The notes under the pieces were generated by a model, which did no database searches, was not told the DNA's origin, and was given only the letters and a program-made list of their open reading frames with translations. Both the position numbers and the translations under genes were made by a program. Below are positions 15,629 to 26,611 of a stretch of 64,000 bases of DNA, piece by piece (positions within the stretch are counted from its first letter, which is position 1; each line of letters begins with the position of its first letter). This DNA comes from a virus. The stretch is from IMG/VR virus record IMGVR_UViG_3300021181_000006, positions 64,001-128,000 of that record; one strand, written 5' to 3'.

Positions 15629-16813
15629 ATGCATGCAAAAGAGCTGAGGGTATGCCTCCAGACCGGACTTTTCGAGAACTGCGAAGAGGATGGCCGACAA
15701 ATCTTTGTTCCCTATATCATTGGCGAAAAGGGTGACGGTAAGTCCACCATCGTCAAAGAACTATGTGCCGCAAATAATGCGTATATGATCGATATTCGAC
15801 TGGCTCTCGAAGATGTTCCTGATCTTAAAGGCTTCCCTTTCGTGGACAAAGTCCAGGTGAATGGGCAGACGGTCAGCCTCACAAGCTTCGCTACGCCTGA
15901 TTGGATCCCGCATGGTCATAGGCTCCAGGAGATCCTACAAAGTGGCACCAAGAGGACGGTAGGCCCCTTTGCTGGCAAGCCATTCCAGTGGGTGGTCATC
16001 TTCTTCGATGAGATGGCTCGTGCCAAGTTGGACGTGCATCAGATCATCTTCCGTATGGTGCTGGACTTCCAGCATGGCGATATCACCTTCGACAAGTGTG
16101 TTCGCATCGTTTCGGCAGATAATCCTGCTACTAAGGACTATAAGGGGGTTAATAAGTTGGATGCCGCATTGGCAAACCGCTTTACGACTCTCTCGTACTC
16201 AGGTCCGACGTTGGCTGAATGGTCGGAATATGAGGCAGCTCATTCTGACTCGATGATCATCCGTTTCTTGACTGAACAGACATCTATGTTCCGCAAGGGT
16301 AATGCCACTCCTCGAACTCTCTCAAAGATTGGCCGTCGTGTGCTCAAGTCGTCTGCCAAGACGAATGGAGCTATTCTGTTCCAACTGCTCTGCGGTATGT
16401 GTGGCGAGGAATTCGCCGCCGCATTCCTCAGATATTATGAGAGCAGCTACAAGGCCATCAAGGCTAAGACTATCTTCGAGGGAACCAAGAAAGAATTCGA
16501 GAAGGCTGTTGCTCAGATCAAGGACTGGAATGCCAGTCATGGCAAGCAGTCTGATGCCATTGCGGATACCGCTATGGACATGCTGGAGTACATGAAGGAG
16601 CCGTATAACTACGTCAACTTCAATGTGAGTCGCTTCATCGAGGTGCTCAATGCATTTCCTGAGGATAAGACCTGGATGATTGTTCGCATGATCGCGGATA
16701 ATCGTGCCGAGAAGTATCCTGAGGGCTACAAGAAGATCCATCCGATTATCCTGCAGAATGCGGATATCAGGGCGATCATCTCGACGCTCTCTGCCAAGCT
16801 GGGAACACTGTAA
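15629..16813 (+). CDS. MoxR-like AAA+ ATPase
   Basis: GEKGDGKS, DLKGFP, FFDEMARA, LDAALANRF. Confidence 0.88.
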   Translation: MHAKELRVCLQTGLFENCEEDGRQIFVPYIIGEKGDGKSTIVKELCAANNAYMIDIRLALEDVPDLKGFPFVDKVQVNGQTVSLTSFATPDWIPHGHRLQEILQSGTKRTVGPFAGKPFQWVVIFFDEMARAKLDVHQIIFRMVLDFQHGDITFDKCVRIVSADNPATKDYKGVNKLDAALANRFTTLSYSGPTLAEWSEYEAAHSDSMIIRFLTEQTSMFRKGNATPRTLSKIGRRVLKSSAKTNGAILFQLLCGMCGEEFAAAFLRYYESSYKAIKAKTIFEGTKKEFEKAVAQIKDWNASHGKQSDAIADTAMDMLEYMKEPYNYVNFNVSRFIEVLNAFPEDKTWMIVRMIADNRAEKYPEGYKKIHPIILQNADIRAIISTLSAKLGTL

Positions 16814-19872: not shown

Positions 19873-21171
19873 ATGTCTGATTACGGCAAAGGGCAGCTCT
19901 ATTCGATAGCGCGTACTTATCTTATTAAGTTCCGACCCTTTTATGCATCGTTCATCCAGGACTGTGCGATTAATTTAGAATGGGATAAAAATCCCGTCGA
20001 TTCGTCCATTGTCAATGGACGCATACATTTGTATGTCAACGAAGCGTTTCTCATCGAGCAGGGCACCACTCCAAAAGAGCTGGCACTACTGATTGAGCAA
20101 CAGGTCAATCTGTTAGTGAATAAGCATCAGATCCGTTCTGTGAATCATGAACTCGGTAGATACGTGGCTGCTGCGCATATCGCAACATCACAAGTCTGCT
20201 TCTCGAAAGAGTTCCCTGACTATGCTCAGATTCTGACTCACGATAAAGCGAAAGAGAAGTTTCAGAACTTTCCTGGCCAAGAGAAGGCTGCAGAGATCTA
20301 TTATGACGCGATCCCACCAGATCCGCCGAGTGATAAAGATATGCAGCCGTACATGCAGCCAGAAGGTGGTGGAGATGCTGGTGAAGGTGAAGGTAAAGCA
20401 GGTGATGGAGAAGGTGAGGGACCTCCTGGTCCTAAGCCAATCCAGCATGGTGCTGCATGGCAGGAAACCAATACTAACGAAGAACAGTTCGACTCTATTC
20501 TGCGTGACGTCGTGAAAGATGCTGCTGGTAAGAACCCAGGAAACATTCCAGGGCATCTCAAGGAGCTGATCGATAAGATCTTGCGGCCACCTGAGGTTCC
20601 TTGGGAGGAAGAGCTGAAGGACTTTATCGAGTCTAAAGTGACGACTGATACGGATCCATCATGGAAACGTCGCAATCGTAACTATGCTCACGCTCCTTAC
20701 ATCATGAAGGGTAAGCAGCCTTCCTTCAGAAGCAGATTCGTTGTGTTTATTGATACATCTGGTTCGGTTAGCTCAGATAATCTGAAGCTGTTCCTGGCCG
20801 AGATGGTCGGTATTTACAATGCTTCGCGTCATACACTCATCACCGTTTGTGTCGATCATTCGGTACAGTCAGTAGCTGAGTTCGATGGGGATGCGAAGTT
20901 CGAGTTCGCTGGTCGTGGAGGTACTCAATTCGACGTCACTATTAAGATGTGTAATGGCGATCTGACCGAGTTAAGCGATCCTATTCGTGAGAAGTATCTC
21001 GAATTACTCGAAGCTGATACCGATATCGATGGTGCTATCTACTTCACTGATGGTGAGTGCGGTCTGTCTGAAACGACAAACCTTCCACTGTTATGGGTGA
21101 TTACACCAGATGGCACCGTGCCAAAGAATTTCCCAGGCAAGGTGGTCCAGATGAAGGATAAAAAGAAGTAA
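19873..21171 (+). CDS. vWA domain protein (DUF2201-like), probable MoxR partner
   Basis: MIDAS motif FIDTSGSVS, GRGGTQF, YFTDGE; acidic/Gly linker; N-terminal peptidase-like domain lacking HExxH. Confidence 0.88.
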   Translation: MSDYGKGQLYSIARTYLIKFRPFYASFIQDCAINLEWDKNPVDSSIVNGRIHLYVNEAFLIEQGTTPKELALLIEQQVNLLVNKHQIRSVNHELGRYVAAAHIATSQVCFSKEFPDYAQILTHDKAKEKFQNFPGQEKAAEIYYDAIPPDPPSDKDMQPYMQPEGGGDAGEGEGKAGDGEGEGPPGPKPIQHGAAWQETNTNEEQFDSILRDVVKDAAGKNPGNIPGHLKELIDKILRPPEVPWEEELKDFIESKVTTDTDPSWKRRNRNYAHAPYIMKGKQPSFRSRFVVFIDTSGSVSSDNLKLFLAEMVGIYNASRHTLITVCVDHSVQSVAEFDGDAKFEFAGRGGTQFDVTIKMCNGDLTELSDPIREKYLELLEADTDIDGAIYFTDGECGLSETTNLPLLWVITPDGTVPKNFPGKVVQMKDKKK

Positions 21172-21274
21172 TTCTTCTGGTATAACTTTCTTATAGCGAA
21201 TAGAGGGATATATCATTGTATGATATATCTCTCTAAAATTATTAAACTCCATTTCTCATAGAAATTCATGCATC

Positions 21275-21496
21275 ATGGCTACAACCAAGGTTTATAAGGG
21301 TGCCAACCAGATCGCCGAGTCGAGTCTTGTTGGACGCACCATCACCAGTATCTTCAGCGATGACACCATCGTGGACGTACTGAATCTGTCCGGTGACGAG
21401 ACTATTCGCGTCAACGGTGAGCAGGCAGATCGAAACTATACTATCCGCAGCGGTGACGCTGTTGAGTTCTACAAGCAGCAGGGAACCAAGGGTTAA
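21275..21496 (+). CDS. Ubiquitin-like (beta-grasp) protein with PRTRC protein C-type C-terminus
   Basis: 73 aa; ThiS/MoaD-like IRVNGE...TIRSGDAVEF; ends GTKG with a free C-terminal Gly. Confidence 0.85.
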   Translation: MATTKVYKGANQIAESSLVGRTITSIFSDDTIVDVLNLSGDETIRVNGEQADRNYTIRSGDAVEFYKQQGTKG

Positions 21497-21555
21497 TAAC
21501 CTTTTGTTCTGATGTAGCGTAACGTCTGCAGTGGTAGACGAAGTCGGAGTGACTT

Positions 21556-21587
21556 AAAGAGCCTAATATGTATTAGGCTCTTTTTTT
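21556..21587 (+). terminator. Intrinsic terminator after the Ubl gene
   Basis: aaagagcctaata-tg-tattaggctcttt followed by T run. Confidence 0.85.
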
Positions 21588-21612
21588 AGTTAAAAAGTGG
21601 TAGAAAGTATAT

Positions 21613-22398
21613 ATGGTAATATATAGAACCATGGATACTGGCAATACTACAAGTTTTACGGTTACTACTAATGTCAGTGGAAGTTTTGGGAATATTGGTA
21701 ACTATGTAAATTTTGTCACAGAAGTCCAGCAACCGAAGGAACAACATCCCGTGACCATCGAAATCGATGAATCAGGCAGAGTAACGTTCTTTGAGAAGAG
21801 AATCATCAAAGAAACGAACTTAGAAAATCTGTTAAAGACATTCGAGGAGCAGAAGCCGTTGTCATCAGGCTTACTCCCTCAAAACTGTATCAATTACACG
21901 AGACGTGGTCGGGCTACGATCTATGTGATCGAAGAGTTCCCTGGTGTTCGCAAAATTAATTATCAGACGCAGGCACGTGAACTACTCACTAATATGCCGA
22001 TTAGCGTACCATTCTTATATTGGGTTCTTGTCTTTAATCCTGCATTAACTGCATATGTGCGTTGTTCCAAACGTCGCTTGAAGACCTTGGACGATCCAGT
22101 ATTCCATCCTCCACTTCTGAACGTATACGATCAGGGTTCTGGCAAGATCTGTGCTGGTGATGGTGTTCAAGTAGATGCTCGTTCTAATCTGATAGAGAAG
22201 ATCGAACAGTTTACGAAAACACTCTGGGGATCTAATTGGAATCATGATTTGACTCCTGGATATCCTGCAGAGTTTAATAACTATCCACAATACATTCGTA
22301 TGTCATCCGCTGATCCAACCGTATGGTCCAAGCTCAGTTACAGGAAAAGCGACCTCAGTATTAATCAACTTCTCATGAGATTATCAACGAGTGAGTAA
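21613..22398 (+). CDS. Prokaryotic E2-like protein (Prok-E2_D / PRTRC protein B-like)
   Basis: LLPQNC, VPFLYWVL, FHPPLLNVY...GKICAG with candidate catalytic Cys; operon context. Confidence 0.75.
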   Translation: MVIYRTMDTGNTTSFTVTTNVSGSFGNIGNYVNFVTEVQQPKEQHPVTIEIDESGRVTFFEKRIIKETNLENLLKTFEEQKPLSSGLLPQNCINYTRRGRATIYVIEEFPGVRKINYQTQARELLTNMPISVPFLYWVLVFNPALTAYVRCSKRRLKTLDDPVFHPPLLNVYDQGSGKICAGDGVQVDARSNLIEKIEQFTKTLWGSNWNHDLTPGYPAEFNNYPQYIRMSSADPTVWSKLSYRKSDLSINQLLMRLSTSE

Positions 22399-22714
22399 AA
22401 AAGAGAGCGCGCAAGCCAATCGTGATCTCTATTACATGCTGAATGAGTATACTACTAGTATCAAAACGATCTCTATCGAAGAATATATCGATAAAGATCT
22501 GAAGATATTAACGGTAGAAGAATTAGCGAACACCAAGGTCACTGAAGCCAACTTCGGTGAAGTTATGTTCGTTAAGAAACTCCGTCAGTATGCCATGGAT
22601 AAAAACGTGGTATTTCGTGGCATGTCTATGGCAGATAAAATTGCTTTAGATAAAATTATTAACAAGATCCCCCTTTGTCAAGCTGTCACTACCGTAGAGG
22701 ATACTGACCTGTGA
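22391..22714 (+). CDS. Hypothetical protein within the Ubl operon
   Basis: 107 aa; overlaps both neighbouring genes. Confidence 0.65.
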   Translation: MSKKESAQANRDLYYMLNEYTTSIKTISIEEYIDKDLKILTVEELANTKVTEANFGEVMFVKKLRQYAMDKNVVFRGMSMADKIALDKIINKIPLCQAVTTVEDTDL

Positions 22715-24105
22715 AACTCGTTGGAACGCTGGGCATGCTGCCCCTTTATCATCTCGAAAAAGGAGATGATGTATCACAAATGTGCGATGATATCGAAAAG
22801 ACTTCATATATCCTGGCTCATGATGGGCTGTGGTTACTGAAGAAAACTGACTTTTTCTGGAGTCTTCGCGCTGCGAAGGTTCCTAACGCGGTTGAGAAGA
22901 CCGAAGCACTCATTAATACGCATGGCCTGCCTTTGGTCCCAAAAGAGGAGATGGATACGGCTATCGCCTTTTTTCGTCGCGTGTACGCCATACATAAGTC
23001 CGAAGCCGCGCTCATTCTCTATTGGCTCCCAGGCACGACGCAATTTAAGTGGACCTGTCCCAAGCAAACTGTTGCTCCAGCGTCAGTTAACTACAGCGAT
23101 GTCCCACATCCAGGCGAAGGCTGGATTGTCCTCCTCCACATGCATTCCCATGCATCGATGTCAGCATTCCATTCGGGTACTGACGACCATGATGAAAAAT
23201 TCGTGGATGGCTATAATATCACGATTGGGAAGCTAAACACTCCTGGTTATGAGTTTGAGTGCCGCATCATGATTGGTGGACTTAGCCTGAAGTCGAAGAT
23301 GGAAGATATTGTGGAGAATTGGTTACCTCCGGTTGGAGAGTTCCCTAATGAGTGGTTAAATAATGTGAATACTCCTCCTCCGTATGTGGCTCCTGCATAT
23401 ACGCCATATACTCCACTGGTTGGGTGTTTCCCGCCAGTTTCTCGTCCTTGGGATGATAAATACATGGCGCCTCAAGGCCATGGGTCACATAACTATGTTC
23501 CTCCCGGTCAGCATGGAGAGTGGAAGAGTGATCTGGGAAAATCGAGAGTCCCATTGACTTCGACGATGAAGCAGCAGAACAACGTCGATGGGAAGCGCTC
23601 TCATGGGAATGCTAAGAAGAATAAGAAATATCAGGCGCCCATGTCTGATCTGTATCCGCTCTCAGGGCCATCAAGAAATACATCTGAAACTGTCGCGGTT
23701 CGTAAATGGATCGATGCCAACTTCAAGTTTCTGACAGAACTCGGATATACTGGACAGGATTACGCTGCATTTCTGTCGATGACTCTTGCACAGGCCAAAG
23801 AAGAGCTTGAAGCAGATAATCGTGATTACTTTATTGGTAATGGATTAGCTCTTCCGACACAATGTGATATTTTAGGGTATAAACAGAATGTTATCCCCTT
23901 TAATCAACATGCGAGTGGTCGTGTGATGTTGACTCCTGTCGAACAGGAGAGCGATGGATTTGTTCCTGCTCCGTTCAACAGCAAGACCGATACGACTCCT
24001 GAAGAGGAGACGACGATTATTAGCCGTGAAACCGAACCTGGTAAAGTGGATGAAAATCCATTACAAGGTATTTATCTGACGAAAGCAAATGGCGGAATCA
24101 TCTGA
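22711..24105 (+). CDS. JAB/MPN+ metalloprotease (PRTRC protein A-like) with long low-complexity C-terminal extension
   Basis: KSEAALI (catalytic Glu) and HMHSHASMSAFHSGTDDHDE (HxHx7Sx2D). Confidence 0.88.
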   Translation: MKLVGTLGMLPLYHLEKGDDVSQMCDDIEKTSYILAHDGLWLLKKTDFFWSLRAAKVPNAVEKTEALINTHGLPLVPKEEMDTAIAFFRRVYAIHKSEAALILYWLPGTTQFKWTCPKQTVAPASVNYSDVPHPGEGWIVLLHMHSHASMSAFHSGTDDHDEKFVDGYNITIGKLNTPGYEFECRIMIGGLSLKSKMEDIVENWLPPVGEFPNEWLNNVNTPPPYVAPAYTPYTPLVGCFPPVSRPWDDKYMAPQGHGSHNYVPPGQHGEWKSDLGKSRVPLTSTMKQQNNVDGKRSHGNAKKNKKYQAPMSDLYPLSGPSRNTSETVAVRKWIDANFKFLTELGYTGQDYAAFLSMTLAQAKEELEADNRDYFIGNGLALPTQCDILGYKQNVIPFNQHASGRVMLTPVEQESDGFVPAPFNSKTDTTPEEETTIISRETEPGKVDENPLQGIYLTKANGGII

Positions 24106-25042
24106 GATCCTGACTCTCCCTACTCGGGAGAGTCAGCCCAATATGCAGCATGGCGTGTATGTTATTGGACTTGGTGGAATCGGATCCTGGCTCGTTGAGC
24201 CAGTGATGCGGTTCCTCCATTCCAAGAAGATGCTCGATCATACTGATATCATTCTGGTTGATGGCGATAAATACGAAGCAAGTAATCGTAATCGTCAAAT
24301 CGTTCATCCTAAGCTGATTGGTATGAATAAAGCGGATGCGACTGCGCAACGCATGCGTTCATACTTCCCAGAGTCATCCATTATCGCAGTGCCTCAATTT
24401 ATCTCAACAAAGCATGGGTCCTATTTCAAACAGTATCCTGCCAGGACCTGGATCCTCTCATGCTCAGATAATAATGTGTGTCGTCTCCATCTCAGTCAGA
24501 TTGCTGATGGCATGGATAATGTCACATTATTAACTGGTGGTAATGAGATGACTGATGGCAATTCTCATCTCTTTCATCGTACTGCTCGTAGCCATCAGAA
24601 TGAGACCTTACTGAAGAAGCATCCTGAGATTGCAGAAGCAAACGATGGTGATCGTTCAGCAATGTCATGTGAACAGCTTGCAGCATTACCTAGTGGTGGG
24701 CAGATTATTGTCACCAACTTTGTTTGCGCATCCACTATGTTAATGCATTTTTATCAATCCTGGGAAGCATATGCCAACCACAAGATCCCCGACTACAACG
24801 AATCATTCTTTGATATCAACAAATGCGCTTTCAACAGCATCGAAACTCGCTCCAGATCACGCGAGCAAGAACGTAGTCCAACAGAGCGAAACATTAGAGC
24901 GCGAGTCAATCTCTCAGAAGTCACAGCAGCCAGCGCAGAGCTTGTCTTCAATACCACCGAAGAGCCACCTCGGGTCCGAGATCGAGATCGAGGAGGAGGC
25001 GCTGGTCCTGCAGTTCCCGGACCAGAAGTTGAGGCTCGATAG
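24089..25042 (+). CDS. ThiF/E1-like Ubl-activating enzyme
   Basis: IGLGGIGS, LVDGDKYEASNRNRQ, NKA, CSDN, GGNE, MSCEQ (candidate catalytic Cys), IIVTN. Confidence 0.9.
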   Translation: MAESSEILTLPTRESQPNMQHGVYVIGLGGIGSWLVEPVMRFLHSKKMLDHTDIILVDGDKYEASNRNRQIVHPKLIGMNKADATAQRMRSYFPESSIIAVPQFISTKHGSYFKQYPARTWILSCSDNNVCRLHLSQIADGMDNVTLLTGGNEMTDGNSHLFHRTARSHQNETLLKKHPEIAEANDGDRSAMSCEQLAALPSGGQIIVTNFVCASTMLMHFYQSWEAYANHKIPDYNESFFDINKCAFNSIETRSRSREQERSPTERNIRARVNLSEVTAASAELVFNTTEEPPRVRDRDRGGGAGPAVPGPEVEAR

Positions 25043-25043
25043 G

Positions 25044-25385
25044 ATGAGCAACTGGCCTATTGTCGATATGACCGACAATAGGATCATTTATGGATATGTA
25101 AATATTGATGAATGGTATGCAAATCCTGATGAATTATCGTGTATTCCTCTACCATGTGGTGATAAGTGGTTAGAAATTACTCCAGATATGACATCTGGAG
25201 TATATCTGGCAGAGATGCAGGACTGTCTCGCTGAAGAGCGCGATTATCCAAGAGTCTGCGTGGAATGCGGAACGCTCATTTCTGAGTGTTCAGTCCATAC
25301 CACGCAAGAATGTCCTTCGTGCCGTCAGGAACCAGAACAAGTATTTCCACTCCATGAACTGCTGTCAACACCAAGAGGTCCATAA
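25044..25385 (+). CDS. Small Zn-ribbon protein
   Basis: CVEC...CPSC; AGG before ATG 25044 (track ORF 24771..25385). Confidence 0.65.
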   Translation: MSNWPIVDMTDNRIIYGYVNIDEWYANPDELSCIPLPCGDKWLEITPDMTSGVYLAEMQDCLAEERDYPRVCVECGTLISECSVHTTQECPSCRQEPEQVFPLHELLSTPRGP

Positions 25386-26563
25386 TGTGGCGATATGCCA
25401 TACAACCAGAGCTGGAAGACGCTACTATTTTTAATCAGAAGTTAGCTTCAGTGACAAGTAATCCTGAGACTGACTTTGTTCTTTCTAAATCTTCATGGTC
25501 AGAACGTAGAATGCGTGTGTTGAACGCGTATTTCACCACCAAGTACTTTGGATTGGATGTAAAACTCCTGACCACCATGATCTCAGAATCATGTGGATGG
25601 GATACGAAATGCTTAGTGAAAATATTTGATAGATTTGCTGCTGTCGATATTAAGCCTATTTCACTCTATTTCGATTATCGAGAAGAGTGTAGGGCATGCA
25701 TGCGTTGTCAGAATAGCCATTATATGCTGTCTCCATGGACTATGTGGGTAGGAATTAATTCCGCTCACCTTCCAGAGTCTCAGGGATGTAGAGGTGAATG
25801 GAGTAGTAATTATCCTGGCGTCACTGGTCAGGTGACCTCAGCAAGTAGAAATAGAACACTTATCGGTGGTGATCGTGGAGAGCCATATCCGGTACTTACG
25901 TGGAGTTTTGTAAAACACGAAAATAAGTACCGAATGATCTTTAGCGCACCGATACCTGACGTGTATATGACGACTTTCACTGGTCAGAGGACTATAGAGT
26001 TCGATAACATACGCGATGTTAATCGCTTAATGGTCGGCCTCGTCTATTTTATGCTCAGACAGGGAAGCAGCGGTCCAGGGATCAATATTGGATTATTAGA
26101 TCAAGGTGGCTTCGCTGTTGATTTCTTCAAGTCCGACAAATGGCAGCAGTCGTTGAACAGTTTCGTTTCATCATTCAGTAACGAACTTGATGCTACTACG
26201 TTTGAACGAAAGACTCGTCTGACGGAGTTATCAGCTATTAAGATCGTTCAGGAAAACTATTCTGCTCTTATTACAGAATATACGAGCATTGGTGATTTCA
26301 TGACGGCTACCTTTCCTGGTAAGACGTATATCGAAGTCGCGTCACAATGCTTTAAGCAGAAGATTCCAGAAGCCGAGAAGGCAAAGGAAGTTACAGAAAC
26401 CGCTTTAACCGAAGCTGTTGCTGCAACACCTGCGAAGAAGACACGCAAGAAGAAAGCTGTTCTTACTGGTGTCGAAGAAGATGTAGCAGTTGAAGAAGAA
26501 TCTGTACCAACGGCTATTCGTGCTGAAGTGGCTGTAGTAGCTCCTGCTCCTCAACCAGCATAA
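25385..26563 (+). CDS. Hypothetical protein with CxxCxxC motif and low-complexity C-terminal tail
   Basis: 392 aa; TAATG coupling; last gene before the terminator. Confidence 0.75.
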   Translation: MWRYAIQPELEDATIFNQKLASVTSNPETDFVLSKSSWSERRMRVLNAYFTTKYFGLDVKLLTTMISESCGWDTKCLVKIFDRFAAVDIKPISLYFDYREECRACMRCQNSHYMLSPWTMWVGINSAHLPESQGCRGEWSSNYPGVTGQVTSASRNRTLIGGDRGEPYPVLTWSFVKHENKYRMIFSAPIPDVYMTTFTGQRTIEFDNIRDVNRLMVGLVYFMLRQGSSGPGINIGLLDQGGFAVDFFKSDKWQQSLNSFVSSFSNELDATTFERKTRLTELSAIKIVQENYSALITEYTSIGDFMTATFPGKTYIEVASQCFKQKIPEAEKAKEVTETALTEAVAATPAKKTRKKKAVLTGVEEDVAVEEESVPTAIRAEVAVVAPAPQPA

Positions 26564-26579
26564 CAATTCTTAGTGCACT

Positions 26580-26611
26580 AAGAATAGACCTGAAAGGGTC
26601 TATTCTTTTAG
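26580..26611 (+). terminator. Intrinsic terminator closing the Ubl operon
   Basis: aagaatagacc-tgaaag-ggtctattctt followed by T run. Confidence 0.85.

Follow-up and report, generated by a model that had tools for sequence, protein, structure and literature searches.

A candidate ubiquitin-like conjugation and deconjugation cassette, related to PRTRC operons, in a large virulent-type phage

Results

A stretch of 64,000 nucleotides, which we refer to as the window and which corresponds to bases 64001-128000 of the 184,466-bp virus record IMGVR_UViG_3300021181_000006 from IMG/VR (estimated to be 94% complete), was found to contain seven co-oriented genes that together resemble a cassette for the conjugation and deconjugation of a ubiquitin-like protein (Ubl). 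The genes span positions 21275-26563 of the window on the + strand, in the order Ubl-E2-X-JAB-E1-zinc ribbon-Y, and are tightly packed from E2 onwards: E2 and X overlap by 8 nt, X and JAB by 4 nt, JAB and E1 by 17 nt, and the zinc-ribbon gene and Y by 1 nt, with a gap of 1 nt between E1 and the zinc-ribbon gene. The features of the locus are as follows.

21201..21235, + strand: perfect 16-bp hairpin between a VWA gene and the Ubl gene
21275..21496, + strand: Ubl, a ubiquitin-like modifier of 73 amino acids (aa)
21556..21590, + strand: terminator-like hairpin with a 12-bp stem and U7 (stem-loop 21556-21583), immediately 3' of the Ubl gene and before the enzyme genes
21613..22398, + strand: open reading frame (ORF) of an E2-like (UBC-fold) carrier protein, likely start GTG 21751
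22391..22714, + strand: small protein X, 107 aa
22711..24105, + strand: JAB/JAMM metallopeptidase, 464 aa
24089..25042, + strand: ThiF-type E1, 317 aa
25044..25385, + strand: zinc-ribbon protein, 113 aa
25385..26563, + strand: protein Y, 392 aa
26580..26611, + strand: terminator-like hairpin with a 12-bp stem and a short U-tract (stem-loop 26580-26607), after the Y stop codon
26673..26840, + strand: ORF for a 55-aa double-CxxC zinc ribbon, just past the terminator

A first-pass annotation, made from the letters and their ORFs, had described this locus as a complete phage-encoded Ubl/E2/JAB/E1 set of the PRTRC/Prok-E2_D type, a description that the evidence reported here upholds: matches to protein families, motifs, modelled folds, conservation of the gene order and purifying selection. 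All the ORFs it described are present on the + strand, with two start codons revised below, and the overlaps and closing terminator it had seen are there, to which we add the further terminator-like hairpin directly after the Ubl gene.

The 73-aa Ubl ends in QQGTKG, followed at once by the stop codon. An AlphaFold 2 (AF2) model of the protein has the beta-grasp fold that the first reading had assigned to it along with the GTKG ending (predicted local distance difference test, pLDDT, 89; predicted template modelling score, pTM, 0.74), and Foldseek matched this model to MoaD, SAMP1, Urm1, SUMO, ubiquitin and ThiS. In seven Ubl homologues the sequence is invariant as far as Q-G-[TR]-K-G; three of the seven, the window copy included, end at this point, and the other four add unrelated tails, some of them acidic. 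Read from the sequences, this is how a modifier that undergoes processing would look: the terminal glycine would be the working end and any tail would be clipped off. Endings of the G[TR]KG type were also found in the Ubl of Vibrio phage D69 (in three repeats), in that of Salmonella phage Arash and in the PRTRC_C protein of Ralstonia phage Dina. The Ubl profile gave no significant match to either Dina PRTRC_C or the D69 poly-Ubl, the terminal motif alone being held in common, and hhalign aligned the Ubl with Dina PRTRC_C over a 10-residue tail only (E 0.36).

The Ubl gene is flanked by hairpins on both sides. The upstream one (fold z-score -3.9) has no U-run behind it; it may mark where the upstream unit ends, or serve as a site of processing or regulation. 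Position 21220, within this hairpin, is the start of one RNA contig (run X5). A hairpin with a U-run lies directly after the Ubl gene in all three loci available for comparison (the window and the metagenome loci L002 and L003), each time with a different sequence, and is probably a partial terminator that leaves more Ubl mRNA than enzyme mRNA. RNA contigs from two runs end beside this hairpin, at 21549 and 21563, and contigs from two runs end beside the hairpin after Y, at 26571 and 26574, each of which is a weak hint only; a DNA contig passes through both hairpins.

The E2-like protein carries the motif FHPPLLNVY...KICAG and matched Pfam Prok-E2_D (PF14460) above the gathering threshold (34.3 bits against a cut-off of 25, E 2.5e-8), its best NCBIfam match being to PRTRC_B (ParB-Related, ThiF-Related Cassette; 4.6e-7, below cut-off). 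A full HMMER search returned 240 homologues, the best with 40% identity. N170 and C180 are invariant in 84/84 aligned homologues, and Cys180, with Asn170 ten residues upstream, is the candidate catalytic residue. The protein also has histidines at positions 166 and 211, neither of which lies in a column conserved in the 24- or the 84-sequence alignment. No homologue has anything that corresponds to the ORF's first 46 codons, which were modelled as disordered, whereas GTG 21751 lies 10 nt after an AAGGA and a start there gives a 215-aa product, as in the relatives. This GTG rather than position 21613 is therefore probably the true start. Within the leading part of the ORF (21613-21750), which is probably untranslated, residues 7-66 gave an apparent match to giant proteins (29 stretches; P0002, of 4021 aa) that is a sum of weak 11-15-bit matches to cadherin-like repeats; we rejected it as a probable artefact of a leader read in frame.

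An AF2 model of the E2-like protein was built on the 84 homologues (pLDDT 85.5). In an exhaustive VIA-align search with this model the top rows were almost all UBC, UEV or RWD folds (Z 4.0-5.3, root-mean-square deviation 3-5 Å, 77-127 residues aligned), and the model also aligned to bacterial Cap2, CdnG-E2 and Bub chains at Z 4.1-4.5. A sequence search of the PDB with the E2 profile gave no match. We assign the protein to the E2 class because of the Pfam match and the Asn170/Cys180 pair that is invariant in 84 sequences, the Z values being modest.

The JAB/JAMM metallopeptidase consists of an N-terminal domain and a JAMM core (residues 1-245), a low-complexity insert of ~200 aa and a conserved C-terminal motif, GIYLTKxxGG[IL]x, in which 256-260-aa relatives also end. 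Its E...HxHx7Sx2D zinc site, of which the first-pass annotation had recognised the HxHx7Sx2D part as intact, is complete (E98, H145-x-H147-x7-S155-x2-D158) and invariant in relatives. The best NCBIfam match was PRTRC_A (1.7e-9, below cut-off); of the Pfam families expected at the outset, Prok-E2_D and ThiF scored above their cut-offs, whereas Prok-JAB (PF14464) stayed below its own (17.3 bits against 25, E 0.0045). No match was found in a PDB sequence search with the JAB profile. The window Ubl requires no trimming, yet the JAB site is intact and constrained, and on these sequence features the enzyme probably also removes conjugates. Its diglycine-containing tail might serve as a recognition peptide. 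Compared with L002 and L003, the window proteins JAB (23446-24060), E1 (24850-25039) and Y (26360-26550) each carry a low-complexity insert or tail, with the terminal motifs of JAB and Y (QPA in the latter) retained.

The E1 matched Pfam ThiF (PF00899) above threshold (67.4 bits against 28.1, E 1.4e-18) and PRTRC_ThiF at 9e-13, below cut-off. The residues GxGGxG 27-32, R41, D58/D60, N66, R69, Q70, K81, D127 and C194 are invariant in relatives, the ThiF of Ralstonia phage Dina included, in agreement with the nucleotide-binding motifs and cysteine first noted here. The adenylation site is intact, and Cys194 is the candidate E1 thioester cysteine. The C-terminal 60 aa are of low complexity, and in the PDB the protein aligns to SUMO E1 and TcdA.

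A complex of E1 with the Ubl, which had been proposed as a modelling check, was predicted for E1 residues 1-256. The interface score ipSAE was 0.70, compared with 0.00 for the best control; in the benchmark for this mark it was reached by 58/80 solved complexes and by 2/110 mismatched pairs. Model runs agreed in at least 89% of contacts, with a partner pLDDT of at least 87, and the modelled Ubl tail (residues 67-73) touches the E1 adenylation site at residues 27-32, 125-129 and 149-158. Because solved E1-Ubl complexes are textbook structures, the pass may reflect structures already known to the predictor, and the model is to be read as a likeness and not as proof of binding.

Protein X is encoded by a gene that overlaps those of E2 and JAB and is translationally coupled to them. 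In the X slot of L002 and L003 lies a 92-aa ORF with 27% identity to X, and X differs between these two loci by 0.24 at non-synonymous sites (pN) and 0.79 at synonymous sites (pS); family searches, Pfam, NCBIfam and PADLOC among them, gave no match. The zinc-ribbon gene starts at ATG 25044, 1 nt past the E1 stop codon, and not at 24771 as first annotated, and its exact 113-aa form is present in the ESM Atlas. An N-terminal beta-rich part is followed by CxxC...CPxC, with C72, C75, C90 and C93 invariant in three sequences, and a role as adaptor or E3-like factor is conceivable for the protein. A 10-bp hairpin just within this gene (25056-25082), 12 nt past the ATG, could modulate translational coupling with E1.

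Protein Y has a conserved CxxCxxC, two more cysteines, a PWT motif and a C-terminal QPA. Relatives of 288-293 aa occupy the same position in L002 and L003 (pN 0.39, pS 0.72 between the two). Family searches, the ESM Atlas and profile comparisons yielded no family or fold lead for Y, and it has no similarity to PRTRC_F, to a 320-aa protein of Arash or to a 233-aa protein of D69. On relatives of Y and of the zinc-ribbon protein the ESM Atlas was uninformative, and none of X, the zinc ribbon and Y has detectable relatives beyond L002 and L003. The terminator-like hairpin after Y closes the unit that runs from E2 to Y. Past it, the 55-aa zinc-ribbon ORF gave weak zinc-ribbon Pfam matches only; a 52-aa homologue lies at the same place in L003 (E 3e-4), and its membership in the cassette is uncertain.

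The first reading had called for a survey of phage genomes for the same gene order. The metagenome loci L002 and L003 indeed keep the order VWA ... Ubl-E2-X-JAB-E1-zinc ribbon-Y, with a second small zinc ribbon in L003, and related cassettes are present in Dina, D69 and Arash. Between L002 and L003 all genes, including X, the zinc ribbon and Y, differ at pN 0.13-0.39 and pS 0.57-0.79, with synonymous sites near saturation, which indicates purifying selection on every cassette gene. In a 99.5%-identical strain from another soil run, the cassette differs by 19 synonymous and 5 non-synonymous changes. In addition, the locus is covered in part by contigs from soil metatranscriptomes (three runs), and the cassette is apparently transcribed. 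It is real and intact, and probably active.

Searching cultured phages with the locus gave no DNA match, no tblastn match for E2 and one weak match for JAB; IMG/VR scans using the E2 and alignments A2 and A3 gave no relatives, and a word-seeded protein search with E2 matched the query itself alone. The E2 profile (A6) matched Arash at 3e-15, D69 at 3e-11 and Dina at 3e-10. Only 20-22/241 larger ORFs of the window phage are common to it and Arash or D69, at 25-41% identity, which means that the module has persisted while these phages diverged widely.

The cassette lies among the genes for replication and nucleotide metabolism of this large phage, and nearly all genes are on the + strand. Encoded around it are a MoxR-type AAA+ ATPase and a VWA/DUF2201 protein, along with two helicases, an RNA ligase and a sigma factor; both subunits of ribonucleotide reductase (RNR) are encoded immediately 3' of it. 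Public runs containing the locus carry the label soil metagenome. Downstream, 13 tRNA genes (Asn, Pro, Trp, Gly, Ile, Ala, Val, Met, Phe, Gln, His, Glu, Ser) are dispersed over ~23 kb, at 32052-55306 (ARAGORN, run on the whole record). Two upstream neighbours bear on the limits of the cassette.

15629-16813: MoxR-type AAA+ ATPase
19873-21171: VWA/DUF2201 (DUF2201_N/VWA) protein

An AAA+/VWA pair of this kind is a known feature of N4 (gp25) and of many large phages; the name that PHROGs gives the VWA family, 'HNH endonuclease', is apparently a mislabel. We do not count the pair as part of the cassette because it is present in ~300 cultured phages (N4 gp25, PA5oct and others), only eight phage records match the cassette E1, and D69 and Dina carry the cassette without DUF2201.

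Discussion

On balance we favour, with real room for doubt, the view that these genes form a working Ubl conjugation and deconjugation cassette of a large virulent-type phage, expressed with its replication and nucleotide-metabolism genes. Starting from what can be observed directly, namely the genes with their motifs and folds, their conservation and the purifying selection on them, and their occurrence in RNA libraries, we infer the chemical steps as follows. The 73-aa Ubl would be made ready for use with a free C-terminal Gly73 and, probably owing to the terminator after its gene, transcribed in excess. The ThiF-type E1 would adenylate Gly73 and then probably take the Ubl onto Cys194 as a thioester; from there the Ubl would be handed to Cys180 of the E2-like protein and on to lysines of target proteins, of host or phage. 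JAB would reverse or edit the conjugates and, in relatives with a tailed Ubl or poly-Ubl, trim the precursor. X, the zinc ribbon and Y would be lineage-specific partners, possibly specificity factors.

Several findings weigh against this view. Foldseek gave no match to the E2 model at E <= 0.001, and the E2 fold match obtained with VIA-align is modest, with Z at most 5.3. The histidine of the classical HPN motif is not conserved in the E2 clade, the Ubl terminates in KG and not GG, and neither an E3 nor a target could be recognised. Scores against the PRTRC families fall below the cut-offs (TIGR03736 48.1 against 144.75 bits, TIGR03737 29.4 against 131.45 and TIGR03735 37.5 against 101.8, listed for E1, E2 and JAB, respectively). 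The RNA evidence consists of assembled contigs, in which DNA carry-over is possible and which give no expression levels; uncovered parts and contig depths say nothing on levels. In open-access papers and bioRxiv we found no biochemical test of a PRTRC or type 6d member. For Arash, the homologues of E1 and E2 were found by liquid chromatography-tandem mass spectrometry of particle preparations (Gp246 with 5 unique peptides, Gp248 with 2; PMC10585845), and its GenBank record annotates gp246c (E1 homologue) and gp248c (E2 homologue) as structural proteins. Since RNR, RNA ligases and a helicase turned up in the same preparation (PMC10585845), we do not take the two homologues as packaged: the detection means that they are made, not that they are parts of the virion.

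A different chemistry would follow if the Ubl were a sulfur carrier, adenylated and thiocarboxylated like ThiS, MoaD, CysO or Urm1 and passing its sulfur to a nucleotide, tRNA or cofactor. The E1 is indeed a minimal ThiF/MoeB-type enzyme, the Ubl model matches MoaD, SAMP1, Urm1 and ThiS best, the RNR genes adjoin the cassette, and sets of JAB, E1 and Ubl occur in sulfur pathways (Iyer 2006 rows 4a-4e, PMC1779556). Sulfur pathways lack an E2, however, whereas here an E2-like protein with the invariant Asn/Cys pair is always in the set. Moreover, neither the C-terminal Gly-Gly nor the partner sulfur-transfer enzymes characteristic of ThiS and MoaD were found: the Ubl ends in G[TR]KG, hence in Lys-Gly, and, the first-pass annotation having noted no ThiS-dependent sulfur-metabolism genes nearby, no rhodanese, MoaE or ThiG was found in the whole 184-kb record, nor a rhodanese domain on the E1, although host enzymes could take that part. 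The poly-Ubl and tailed precursors of relatives are likewise typical of protein modifiers, and we regard sulfur transfer as quite unlikely. It is less probable still that the E2-like protein is a Ubl-binding adaptor of UEV/RWD type and no thioester carrier, with conjugation proceeding directly from E1 as in archaeal SAMP, Urm1 or E2-independent routes. The non-catalytic UEV/RWD proteins VPS37A, Tsg101 and FANCL do stand among the top structural rows at the same Z as true E2s, and the classical histidine is not conserved; against this, Cys180 and Asn170 are invariant in 84 diverse homologues, P-x-x-N...C-x-G recurs in D69, Arash and Dina PRTRC_B, and inactive UEV/RWD domains do not retain such a pair.

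Two further proposals concern the role of the cassette and its extent. It may act chiefly against host Ubl immunity (Bil, type II cyclic-oligonucleotide-based antiphage signalling systems, CBASS, or Bub), with JAB stripping conjugates and/or E1, E2 and Ubl competing or mis-loading and no substrates of its own, a proposal about purpose rather than chemistry. All tested bacterial E1/E2/JAB systems are antiphage defences (PMC10557695, PMC11601596, PMC11601603), the cassette lies among early and middle genes, and JAB is kept although the window Ubl requires no processing. Stripping would need no more than a deconjugase, yet all the writer genes are conserved and under purifying selection; and Ubl, E2 and JAB have no PADLOC match and hence no close likeness to Bil or Cap3 parts. 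We hold this to be unlikely as the chief function. That the cassette forms one 'tag-and-remodel' machine with the upstream MoxR-type AAA+ ATPase (15629-16813) and VWA/DUF2201 protein (19873-21171) seems to us most improbable. AAA, VWA and cassette adjoin in the window and L003, and VWA is also there in L002, but the three loci represent one phage lineage, which makes their common order weak evidence, and extra small ORFs lie between the VWA and Ubl genes in L002 and L003. The AAA/VWA pair of the ~300 cultured phages mostly comes without a cassette match, E1 being matched in 8 records, and in D69 and Dina the cassette comes without DUF2201.

Returning to a working conjugation and deconjugation cassette, its biological purpose we infer only tentatively, and the roles put forward in the first-pass annotation, namely tagging of host proteins, anti-defence and control of assembly, are guesses. 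The phage may run a complete writer-and-eraser Ubl cascade during infection, tagging host proteins for takeover or counter-defence, or its own proteins; such a cascade would be a viral mirror image of Bil, CBASS and Bub and a long-retained core module of a clade of ~180-kb phages, a reading that is plausible to us and still more doubtful than not. That very distant large phages retain the set implies a genuine contribution to fitness, and cultured relatives (Arash on S. Typhimurium ATCC 14028, Vibrio phage D69, Ralstonia phage Dina) make the question of tagging testable.

Comparison with known systems

Operons of stand-alone Ubl, JAB, E1-like and E2-like genes were described as type 6d by Iyer, Burroughs & Aravind in 2006 (PMC1779556). 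The type 6d E2 has no classical histidine and an absolutely conserved histidine C-terminal to the cysteine, and the operons include a fast-evolving alpha-helical partner protein (PMC1779556). NCBI names this type PRTRC (NCBIfam TIGR03734-03742), and it is the home of Pfam Prok-E2_D. The window cassette has this gene set, with separate Ubl, E2, JAB and ThiF-type E1 genes in one operon and a core order of Ubl ... E2 - JAB - E1. The best NCBIfam matches of its E2, JAB and E1 are PRTRC_B, PRTRC_A and PRTRC_ThiF, and the E2 motif P-x-x-N...C-x-G, the E1 cysteine C194 and the Ubl ending G-[TR]-K-G are held in common. It differs in the absence of ParB, which the first-pass annotation had also failed to recognise: neither ParB_N (PF02195) nor TIGR03734 was matched at E <= 0.01 in the whole 184-kb record. 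Its accessory proteins X, zinc ribbon and Y are unrelated to PRTRC_F and Dina gp01, and Ubl, X, the zinc ribbon and Y had no NCBIfam match to PRTRC C, D, E or F at E <= 0.1. In contrast to type 6d, a histidine after the E2 cysteine is not conserved in the window's clade; X or Y could be the partner protein, although no homology to it was seen. Only 34/84 E2 relatives match PRTRC_B (best E 5.5e-16). To judge from these comparisons, the cassette is a divergent sister of PRTRC/type 6d and not a canonical member.

The novelty of the phage-borne set had been overrated at first reading. It is not a first, the operon type having been described in 2006 and RefSeq already annotating a full PRTRC cassette in Ralstonia phage Dina (gp07-gp02, in the order E-C-F-B-A-ThiF), and cultured phages of Vibrio and Salmonella carry relatives of it. 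What is new are the accessory genes, the absence of ParB and a mature Ubl with its own terminator. The accompanying statement that no phage system of this type had been functionally characterised holds for the open-access literature and bioRxiv, where we found no functional study of the PRTRC/Prok-E2/phage Ubl-E1-E2-JAB class.

Among large cultured phages with related cassettes are Vibrio phages D69, D181 and D148 (OZ195729 and relatives), which encode a poly-Ubl, a 233-aa protein, a 95-aa protein, E2, JAB and E1, and Salmonella phage Arash (OQ632216), which encodes a 66-aa Ubl ending in RTGTKG, a 320-aa protein, a small ORF, E2, JAB and E1. D69 and Arash resemble the window phage in size (181-187 kb), in a distant common backbone, in the core order Ubl, E2, JAB, E1, in the Ubl ending TGTKG and in a JAB with a long C-terminal extension. 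They differ from it in that the D69 Ubl is a three-repeat poly-Ubl, in that both have the 233-320-aa protein and a small ORF between Ubl and E2, and in that no zinc-ribbon or Y gene follows E1, their accessory proteins having no similarity to Y. The D69 poly-Ubl (L004:1385-2176 in our numbering of OZ195729) has 263 aa in three beta-grasp-sized repeats, each ending in [KR]TGTKG; the spacer between repeats 1 and 2 is short and that between repeats 2 and 3 long and acidic, as in a polyubiquitin precursor. The D69 E1 (L004:4929-5186) is annotated from an internal Met, and its Rossmann GxGGxG lies upstream in the same open frame, which has no ATG, GTG or TTG start; this points to a non-canonical start codon or to another route by which the protein is made. 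The Arash Ubl gene (L006:107-307) is unannotated, the record's gp251c (L006:102-320) having been called in another frame over the same DNA.

Among bacterial relatives, protein conjugation has been demonstrated only for Bil, type II CBASS and Bub (PMC10557695, PMC11601596, 10.1101/2023.09.04.556158), and these alone are counted as characterised, other operon families being called uncharacterised (PMC10557695, PMC11601596, PMC11601603). The window cassette shares with Bil, with Cap2 and Cap3 of type II CBASS and with Bub the same enzyme logic of Ubl, E1, E2 and peptidase. The E1 gave weak matches to the PADLOC 'E1-E2' (Cap2) family, at 3.9e-8 and weaker; no match in PADLOC was found for Ubl, E2 or JAB, nor is there an E1-E2 fusion that would place the cassette within Bil or CBASS. 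E1 and E2 are separate genes here, whereas Cap2 is an E1-E2 fusion, and the candidate catalytic residues are cysteines, in contrast to the oxyester chemistry of Bub. The tested prokaryotic E1/E2/Ubl systems are host-owned and directed against phages, whereas here the virus itself carries a full, conserved and apparently active set.

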